In this document: positions 9,638 to 11,355 of the stretch, piece by piece
Layout of the letters: every line of letters starts with the position of its first letter
Position numbering within the stretch: position 1 is the stretch's first letter
From: a plasmid
Direction: 5' to 3' (one strand)
DNA length: 64,000 nt
Assembly (NCBI RefSeq): GCF_053078305.1
Contig: NZ_CP166875.1
The notes under the pieces: generated by a model
The model's database searches: none
What the model was told of the DNA's origin: nothing
What the model saw: only the letters and a program-made list of their open reading frames with translations
Program-made: the position numbers and the translations under genes

Positions 9638-10180
9638 ATGCGCAACAGTAAAGTGCAACTTGTATCAATCCTCAGACAGGTCAGTCTTTCACTGAACACG
9701 GAGCCATTACGACAGTTTATCTCTCTGAGGGAGATTGCAGAAGAGACGGATCACGTCGCTGCTCGTTTGTCCGGAGGAAAACGGGTAACACCTGCACAAA
9801 TTTATGAATTGTGTGCACAGTTATGGATGGCCAGGATGAAGGCAGTTGAAGTTTATGGGCGACATTCTGATGTGGTGATGTCTCTGGAAAGACAGACTGA
9901 TTTACTTGAGGCTGCAGGCAACGTATTAAAACAACGCTGGTTTTACCGTCCGTGGGGATCATCAAAAGCATCTGTGATGCTGACAGGTATACTGGTGATC
10001 CCCGTATTTCTGGTTTTATCCGGATTGTTGAGTGCAGGGTATCCCGGGTTATTATGTATTACCGTATCCGGCTGTTATTTTTCCGGGATTGCCGCTTTTT
10101 CTTTGCGGGCTAAAGATCCAGTCGGGCTTTGCTGGTCTGTGTTCTGTTTTATTCTGCTATATCTGCTCCTGAAAAAATGA
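9638..10180 (+). CDS. hypothetical protein, soluble N-terminal domain plus C-terminal TM helices
   Basis: ORF directly after traU stop; not part of canonical F tra set; C-terminal hydrophobic helices. Confidence 0.4.
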   Translation: MRNSKVQLVSILRQVSLSLNTEPLRQFISLREIAEETDHVAARLSGGKRVTPAQIYELCAQLWMARMKAVEVYGRHSDVVMSLERQTDLLEAAGNVLKQRWFYRPWGSSKASVMLTGILVIPVFLVLSGLLSAGYPGLLCITVSGCYFSGIAAFSLRAKDPVGLCWSVFCFILLYLLLKK

Positions 10181-10908
10181 GATTAATTATTCTGCGTCTG
10201 AATAATGAATGCTCCGCCATTGCGATGTACTCTGAATCCATTGGGATGCCTCCTGCAGGAGAACAGTCTGTAGCGGGTTTTTCCCCCATACCTCAGATTC
10301 AGGACAATAGTTTCACAGAGTGGCGTCTTCCTTGCCTTTTCTTTATATAGTATACCTTTTTTTTTCAGGTTATTAGCTATTCTGTTTCGGATTCCGTGGC
10401 GCAGGATGTGAGACTGTAATGTGATCGTGTTATAAGACGGATAGCATAATATGAAATGTTCAATATTTCCGACAAGCTTGTCTGCGTTGATTCTTGAGGA
10501 TACTTTGACAGATGGTCTGGTAATATATTGTGGATGTATATCGATTCTCAGGCTGGATATAAAGGGGGTAAGATAAAGACCCGTAACAGGCGTTCTGAGC
10601 ATGGACGATGAGAAAAAGAACAGAAAAAACCATAGTGTAATTACAGATATCCCTGACCTGATAATTACAGAGTATATGTTTCCGCTGAAAGGTGAATAAT
10701 CTTTTTGTATCATCAGATGTATGATGGATGACAGTAAAAACAAAATAAAGCCAGCCGGGAATGGTCTTCTCAGAACTCTGAAAAAGAGACTGTTATTTAT
10801 GAAGCGAAAACGAAGCAGGACCGTTAACAACAGCGATAAGAATATCAGTATTATGACCATTTGCACTCCGAAACTGATACATGAACAGATGTTTAAGGGT
10901 GATATTAA

Positions 10909-11355
10909 ATGAGTGAAGGGACAAGAGTAAATGATTTTGCTTATGTCAAACAGGCCCTTTTGGCGGTGTTTCATCGGATGAATACCCGGCCGCTCACCAG
11001 GCTATGTGAAAAAGATGATATTCAGCGTGGAATTGCAGATATTCAATGGATGTTACATCATCACTATTATCCATCACCCGGACAGGTTTGTTTTATAATA
11101 TTTTTATTGCGGGATGAGAAGTTCCGGGTAGTGCGGGAAGATGGGCGTCAGTCATTCCTTGCAGTTGAAATTCAGTCGTTAATTGATGTTCTGAAAGATA
11201 TACGGAAATACCTGCAGTTTGTGACACGGTATGACTGTGATGGTTGTATTATCAGGCTGCATGCCAGTGCTGAACGTAAATACCTGTGGATTTTCCTTGA
11301 GTGTGTAATTGTGTTTATTTTGTGTGCTGTGCTGTTTTTTCTGATTATCTGTTAA
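10909..11355 (+). CDS. hypothetical tail-anchored membrane protein
   Basis: 148 aa ORF, C-terminal TM helix, AT-rich. Confidence 0.4.
   Translation: MSEGTRVNDFAYVKQALLAVFHRMNTRPLTRLCEKDDIQRGIADIQWMLHHHYYPSPGQVCFIIFLLRDEKFRVVREDGRQSFLAVEIQSLIDVLKDIRKYLQFVTRYDCDGCIIRLHASAERKYLWIFLECVIVFILCAVLFFLIIC

Follow-up and report, generated by a model that had tools for sequence, protein, structure and literature searches.

Long conjugation operons are usually read as one-directional, and a segment inside one of them raises the question of whether a conserved gene can run in the opposite direction mid-operon. The segment lies in the window analysed here, a stretch of 64,000 nucleotides from a plasmid (contig NZ_CP166875.1, RefSeq assembly GCF_053078305.1) that carries an F-type transfer region (mating-pair formation class MPF_F). 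Between traU and trbC, two + strand open reading frames (ORFs), A and C, flank a gap of AT-rich DNA. The original prediction, made from the letters alone, leaned towards ascribing the long - strand ORF of this gap to base composition and offered a degraded gene, an antisense membrane protein or a non-coding element as its content. Comparative evidence instead identifies a genuine protein-coding gene, here called B, on the strand opposite tra, filling about 93% of the segment (678/728 bp). We put the probability of our overall explanation, a real gene B within an inverted A-B-C cassette together with the steps inferred from it, at about 0.75.

Coding evidence for gene B

As first read, the gap lies in an F-type tra setting, with traC, trbI, traW and traU upstream and trbC and traN downstream, and it is rich in A and T. 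Its GC content (10181-10908) is 39.1%, compared with 54.5% for traC-traU and 52.7% for trbC-traN; calling it strongly AT-rich is right as to the low GC but slightly overstates the case, since the whole islet (9625-12115) is already at 41.3%. The + strand of the gap has only short ORFs (73, 63 and 41 aa), and the - strand has one of 263 aa (10183-10974), again in agreement with the original prediction. This 263-codon ORF is far beyond chance expectation for AT-rich DNA: when 10100-11000 was shuffled 2000 times by mononucleotide, the longest run without a stop was 78.5 codons on average and 191 at most.

The segment is present in 30 plasmid records found by blastn, including two Salmonella lineages (88% and 69.5% nucleotide identity) and Klebsiella. 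The B ORF of Salmonella Pomona pCFSAN024552 is intact (262 codons), and its sole indel relative to the window is of 3 bp and in frame. The ORF is likewise intact in Salmonella Birkenhead and in Klebsiella pKP91 and pINF237_03, and Klebsiella B is already annotated as a 224-aa - strand coding sequence (CDS; WP_012539946). Protein identity to the window copy is 86% in Salmonella Pomona, 60% in Salmonella Birkenhead and 48% in Klebsiella pKP91, falling to 18-33% in distant family members. Numbering the homologous loci with an L (L002, Salmonella Pomona; L004, Salmonella Birkenhead; L005, Klebsiella; L017, NZ_AP042600.1), intact B ORFs of 224-232 aa occur in L002, L004, L005, L008, L009, L011, L012, L018, L019 and L022. 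A 225-aa protein about 99.6% identical to B (one residue different) has also been called independently in public assemblies (cluster P0001, 135 members).

The ratio of nonsynonymous to synonymous substitution rates (dN/dS, Nei-Gojobori) for B was 0.12-0.22 in 6/6 pairwise comparisons, with 0.22 against the Salmonella Pomona copy; elsewhere it was 0.39 for A, 0.21 for C (both against Salmonella) and 0.07-0.13 for core tra genes. Differences between orthologues are concentrated at third codon positions of the - strand frame, from 16:16:47 against the closest orthologue (L002) up to 75:73:134 in other pairs. The period-3 Fourier signal-to-noise of B was 4.04, above every one of 500 shuffles (mean 0.97, maximum 3.61). 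Together with the ORF length and the orthologues, these measures overturn the view of the - strand ORF as a composition artefact. The original prediction had itself held that three-base periodicity and homologues would make the ORF real, and we found both, the latter as 26-30 sequence clusters.

Alignment of the 5' ends placed the start of B further downstream than first proposed. GGAG, AGGAG or a similar purine-rich motif precedes the aligned start by 5-10 nt in most of 12 orthologues, the in-frame 5' extension varies from 7 to 82 codons and is not conserved, and predicted B-family proteins in public collections are mostly 221-232 aa long. Because the ribosome binding site (RBS) and start align in most orthologues and the length of the extension is variable, we assign B to 10183-10860 and not to 10183-10974; a start at 10974 is too far upstream.

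Of the contents first suggested for the gap, a membrane protein encoded opposite tra thus agrees with the coding evidence, which speaks against a degraded gene and against a known non-coding RNA. An Rfam scan of 9400-12300 gave a single match, CRISPR-DR22 at 11318-11359 (E 0.2; 22 bits, gathering threshold 50), which lies outside the gap. Binding of H-NS is compatible with a gene here, and would add to B rather than replace it.

Gene order around B and the A-B-C cassette

B is convergent with A, with 2 bp between their stop codons, and divergent from C, with 48 bp between their start codons. Profile comparison identifies A and C as paralogues (hhalign probability 98.5%, E 2.5e-15, over the N-terminal 111 columns), with the common motif YPxPxxV...LRxEKFRxxR followed by transmembrane helices. 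The C protein of the window stops after its first transmembrane helix and is without the last two helices of its 189-207-aa relatives. This truncated C is conserved in Salmonella Pomona (dN/dS 0.21), and it ends about 10 bp before the junction with a traU fragment.

Complete A-B-C triads were found in L002, L004, L005/L006, L011, L012, L013, L019 and L022, and B with C only in L008, L009, L018 and one short contig. At the traU-trbC site, triads occur in Salmonella Birkenhead, two Klebsiella IncFII clades and a metagenomic F-like contig. Distant homologues of B lie in MPF_I, Dot/Icm-like transfer regions, where B follows traK/IcmT (L009, L018) or precedes traH/DotD (L013, L019). It also lies between a traR-like gene and the traS/T position (L008) and beside conjugative type IV pilus genes (L010, L020). 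In all contexts examined, F-type and I-type, B is inverted relative to its neighbours.

The partners recur as well. A C homologue is the divergent neighbour of B in L008, L009, L013, L018, L019 and L022, and an A homologue is its convergent neighbour in L013 and L019. In the most divergent subfamily of B (L010, L020), the neighbouring genes encode proteins of 166 aa and 185 aa with no detectable homology to A. A and C also occur without B, 68 bp apart, in a Hafnia-type F-like plasmid (L021), and within the main family we saw no B without an A- or C-type neighbour. We also asked if the C-like protein of an I-type locus might be the product of a named IncI1 gene, R64 traS for example, and rejected the idea: its tblastn matches were limited to six plasmids of Serratia, Erwinia and Pantoea, all annotated as hypothetical. 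The cassette is rare, B being present in 85/72,556 plasmid records (tblastn). On the evidence of gene order and homology, A-B-C is a conserved accessory cassette in F-type and I-type transfer clusters of Enterobacterales.

Sequence and predicted structure of the B protein

B has hydrophobic helices at approximately residues 2-16, 36-51 and 62-86, followed by a basic alpha/beta domain (residues 87-225; pI 10.9) with 24 lysines and arginines against 5 acidic residues in 139 positions. The first loop contains five arginines and no acidic residue. By the positive-inside rule, B probably sits in the inner membrane with its C-terminal domain in the cytoplasm.

Among 5.8 billion sequences the family forms 26 clusters at 90% identity, and among 1.84 billion proteins it has 30 representatives at 50%; every one comes from Enterobacterales (Escherichia, Salmonella, Klebsiella, Cedecea, Enterobacter, Serratia and Yersinia), and none of them is named. 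Across 29-34 members, down to about 20% identity, S150, H151, L187, N188, Y191, G192, N207 and G215 are invariant and G193 is nearly so; S150-H151 ends a strand, and the conserved motif reads LNLxYGGKTRYR...KHxNGFKVHxxG. The window copy keeps every invariant residue. None of these is acidic; among the acidic residues only D107 is well conserved, and in distant members it too varies.

The full-length AlphaFold2 model of B was poor, and a model of residues 86-225 built from 34 sequences reached a pLDDT of 89.2 and a pTM of 0.81. It has a beta-beta-alpha-beta-alpha-beta-alpha core, then a long ordered loop and a final strand. Foldseek matched this domain to the DNase-I-like subdomain of RNase E/G (PDB 6x2d, 8b0j; E 3.6e-3), with a TM score below 0.5 and 9-12% identity, and GNAT, methyltransferase, Smr and EEP nuclease folds scored nearly as well. 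Searches with 29 family members returned only scattered single-member family hits driven by the transmembrane segments. Profile searches of PDB sequences with full-length B, its C-terminal domain and the C family gave nothing, or noise at E > 0.8, and nothing usable came from comparing A, C and D (a hydrophobic ORF further downstream) with Pfam, NCBIfam, PADLOC and PHROGs. Judged by these comparisons, B represents a family without resemblance to anything characterised.

Predicted transcription across the cassette

The spacers of 2 bp and 48 bp would leave no room for independent terminators and little for a B promoter outside C. Because of these spacers, the tra transcript would have to cross B in antisense, and because only 48 bp separate the two starts, a B promoter would have to overlap the 5' end of C. 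Any tra transcript that extends to C, trbC, traN and the genes beyond would read B in antisense. A candidate B promoter straddles the start codon of C and is positionally conserved in an alignment of five orthologues; its counterpart in Klebsiella (L005), TTTACA-18-TATCAT, is a better match to consensus. A consensus promoter scan of the window gave no site for B above threshold. RfaH, an anti-terminator, is needed for transcription of F tra. Cytosine is scarce on the + strand of the gap (C/G 0.76), a composition that would be unfavourable for Rho loading.

In noncontiguous operons, or excludons, overlapping transcripts repress each other (PMC11034616). Given the layout, we consider it fairly likely that A-B-C is such an arrangement, with expression of B and read-through of tra, A and C mutually repressive. 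B would then be made mainly when tra is silent and, with tra on, would be silenced or would impede the distal tra genes.

We also observed a weak terminator-like hairpin with a T-rich tail on the + strand at 10253-10273, about 75 nt past the stop codon of A, where the coding sequence of B is best conserved. If functional, it would weaken read-through of tra.

Annotation gap and loss of B in E. coli

A megablast search of 5,426 complete E. coli genomes located the segment in 36, always on plasmids. In 36/36 of the E. coli RefSeq genomes that carry it, the Prokaryotic Genome Annotation Pipeline (PGAP) has annotated nothing under it; the missing annotation of B in E. coli is a systematic gap. Annotated homologues exist in Klebsiella and, as a 5'-truncated 176-aa CDS, on the E. 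coli plasmid pLAO6.

Copies of the segment in E. coli measure 728 bp (8 copies), 727 bp (10) or 726 bp (about 9), and some of the differences in homopolymer length may be sequencing errors. Several fall at a run of nine adenines within B: L014 has a 1-nt deletion in it, L015 a 2-nt deletion at its edge, and L016 one deletion in the run and another 1-nt deletion elsewhere. The run could be a contingency or slippage site, a place of repeated inactivation, or partly a product of sequencing error. B is deleted altogether in NZ_AP042600.1 (L017), in seven sibling plasmids and also in CP057156 and AP025756; in the L017 lineage, 154 bp remain between an intact A and a 156-aa C. By alignment of these copies, there are at least four independent inactivations of B within about 1% divergence, against long-term purifying selection. 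The window copy is intact.

Possible roles of B and rival explanations

B would be a dispensable, potentially costly inner-membrane effector, possibly acting on nucleic acid, with A and C as its partners or antagonists. We advance tentatively, as a possibility, the view of B as a costly accessory effector partnered by A and C, which may plausibly take part in plasmid competition, exclusion or defence. A more detailed picture is speculative and rather improbable: A-B-C would be a conjugation-coupled module in which B is a membrane-anchored nucleic-acid effector with half of a DNase-I/RNase E-like fold, perhaps dimeric. B would be made only when tra is silent, since antisense read-through of tra would shut it off, and would be neutralised or partnered by the paralogues A and C, co-transcribed with tra. 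The module would serve in addiction, in competition between plasmids or in excluding incoming DNA, and would have spread between F-type and I-type operons.

Alternatively, A, B and C could serve the type IV secretion system (T4SS) as structural or regulatory accessories, for instance gating or stabilising the inner-membrane platform, with the inversion of B only setting its dosage. All three are membrane proteins, and every long contig examined has the cassette within transfer or conjugative-pilus clusters, which belong to two mating-pair formation types. Against this stand the rarity of the cassette in plasmids and E. coli genomes alike, its variable position in I-type regions, the repeated loss and a GC content foreign to tra, all features of an optional passenger. 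Since repeated loss of B, orphan A-C pairs and foreign GC fit an accessory effector better than a machine part, we prefer the effector and regard the T4SS role as unlikely.

A further alternative accepts the gene family and holds that B is decaying to a pseudogene in this E. coli clade and is inactive in the window plasmid. The frameshifts in L014, L015 and L016, the deletion in L017, the small share of full-length E. coli copies at 728 bp (about 8/28) and the truncated C are in its favour. However, B in the window is intact with all its invariant residues, B and the truncated C are both under purifying selection (dN/dS 0.22 and 0.21 against Salmonella Pomona), and the cost of an active gene would explain repeated loss equally well; we find decay quite improbable.

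That the - strand ORF is a chance product, and the segment a spacer, a small RNA locus or an H-NS nucleation site, would suit its GC of 39%, the hydrophobic N-terminus and the silence of PGAP in E. coli. It does not agree with conservation down to 48% identity and beyond, the low dN/dS, the third-position excess, the in-frame indel, a period-3 signal above all shuffles, the RBS in most orthologues or the absence of an Rfam match in the gap. This reading is extremely improbable and is refuted as the primary explanation. The segment is almost certainly not what is left of a + strand tra-operon gene that has decayed: its short ORFs, of which the one at 10721-10912 overlaps the start of C, are not the same in count, size and place from one orthologue to the next, the C-abutting one is absent in L013 and L019, the substitution periodicity lies wholly in the - strand frame, and the segment keeps to 720-750 bp because B is inside it.

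The reading that we prefer, a real gene B in an inverted A-B-C cassette, has several points against it. The candidate promoter is weak in the window, matching 8/12 consensus positions and falling below the scan threshold, and its conservation is confounded by the coding constraint on C. Read-through of tra across B and expression of B are predictions. The B profile matched nothing in Pfam, NCBIfam, PADLOC or PHROGs, and neither family, defence-system nor structure comparisons supply a function. About 19/28 full-length E. coli copies are 1-2 bp short, so that by length some two thirds appear frameshifted, as possible decay within the clade would produce, and with its C truncated the cassette may not be fully functional in this plasmid.

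Islet boundaries and neighbouring reading frames

The features of the islet and its surroundings are collected in Table 1. A duplicate of the 3' end of traU closes the cassette; it is 95% identical to the last 128 bp of traU (over 11416-11543; the traU 3' original is at 9482-9624), and within it the heptamer CGGACAG has gone from 2 copies to 7 tandem copies (11381-11429). PGAP annotates the duplicate in other records as "TraU family protein, incomplete". L017 apart, the duplicate was seen in no lineage but the E. coli / Salmonella Pomona clade; L022 instead has a traU fragment upstream of A. The positions of these fragments, after C here and upstream of A in L022, suggest that alternative cassettes have been added one upon another at the traU-trbC junction, by way of recombination at the 3' end of traU.

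Table 1. Features of the islet between traU and trbC and of the adjoining transfer genes (positions in the window).
Feature	Position	Strand	Remarks
traC	4993-7623		Upstream of islet
trbI	7620-8006		Upstream of islet
traW	8003-8635		Upstream of islet
traU	8632-9624		Directly before islet
Low-GC islet	9625-12115		About 2.5 kb, between traU and trbC
Gene A	9638-10180 (alternative start 9611)	+	180-aa membrane protein; PGAP hypothetical WP_001365589
Gene B	10183-10860	-	225 aa; supported by intact orthologues, dN/dS, period-3 and family alignments
T9 run	10357-10365	+	A9 in B (CDS nt 496-504, codons KKK); frameshift hot spot
In-frame stop-free 5' extension	10861-10974	-	Source of the 263-aa ORF; probably not translated in B
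Shine-Dalgarno GGAG	10866-10869	-	5 nt before the ATG at 10860
Candidate B promoter (inferred)	10902-10931	-	-35 TTTACT (10931-10926), 18-nt spacer, -10 TAATAT (10907-10902)
Gene C	10909-11355	+	148 aa; PGAP hypothetical WP_001289131
traU 3'-end duplicate	11366-11543	+	Pseudogene fragment, closes A-B-C; direct repeats D1, D2, D4
Gene D	11570-11902	+	110-aa hydrophobic ORF between traU fragment and trbC; annotated hypothetical
trbC	~12131-12769		Downstream of islet
traN	13228-15144		Downstream of trbC

Gene D is 36% identical to its equivalent in L004. It seems to be a separate cassette, also present in plasmids without A-B-C; the pattern of hits H26-H30 suggests plasmids with the order traU-hypothetical-trbC. 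Between trbC and traN, a + strand ORF of 126 aa (12766-13146) is another small hypothetical gene in the tra operon, and the equivalent slot in L004 holds a protein with an HNH-endonuclease motif. Several inter-gene junctions of tra seem to accept passenger genes.

The 63-aa + strand ORF at 10721-10912 encodes a very basic product and lies antisense to the N-terminus of B, its stop overlapping the start of C (ATGA). The copies from E. coli, Salmonella and one lineage of Klebsiella contain it. We rejected it as a conserved leader coupled to C, since it is absent or shifted in L011, L012, L013 and L019, and it is probably incidental. Outside the transfer region, the lowest-GC stretch of the window (43000-47000; 34-40%) contains a 1012-aa + strand ORF (43629-46667).

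Comparison with known systems

The artA gene of F, reportedly described by Frost et al. in 1994, is said to lie in the trbA-traQ region and to be dispensable for transfer. Its product has about 104 aa; to our knowledge, it has no assigned function and is not known in I-type systems. Like B, artA is a protein-coding gene on the anti-tra strand within a long tra operon, but it differs in location (B lies between traU and trbC) and has no flanking paralogue pair. No similarity between artA and B turned up in general family scans, none of which was aimed at artA. This anti-tra-strand gene of F is present in only some F-like plasmids, and the survey that lists it, "Five Shades of F" (PMC5102898), does not list the A-B-C cassette. 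The plasmid pBIC1a, subject of a plasmid RNA-seq study, is without the cassette, trbC following traU directly (PMC6286996). The "opposite orientation" of a paper on pCTX-M3 refers to a cat marker and is unrelated to the cassette. Our literature search, within the searchable library, found no paper on A-B-C.

TraS of F and ExcA of IncI are small inner-membrane entry-exclusion proteins, encoded in transfer regions, which are dispensable for transfer and act in plasmid competition. B gave no sequence match to such proteins in Pfam or NCBIfam. Exclusion genes are co-oriented with tra and diversify rapidly, whereas the soluble domain of B is strongly conserved and the gene is inverted in every context examined.

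What is new here is an inverted accessory gene in a transfer operon, as a conserved mobile three-gene module common to two types of T4SS. The result closes a gap in annotation, adds a protein family whose domain model is confident and flags a homopolymer frameshift hot spot. If expression of B does alternate with that of tra, plasmid-carrying cells in the "non-donor" state would have in B a built-in marker or effector.

Noncontiguous operons, reportedly described by Saenz-Lahoya et al. in 2019, resemble the locus in having an inverted gene between co-directional operon genes with almost no spacer, here 2 bp and 48 bp. They are defined by demonstrated co-transcription and mutual repression, which for A-B-C are predictions. 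The noncontiguous operons described are chromosomal, metabolic and Gram-positive, whereas A-B-C is a mobile cassette in conjugation operons; if expression of B alternates with that of tra, it would place a natural noncontiguous-operon control on a clinically important mobile element.

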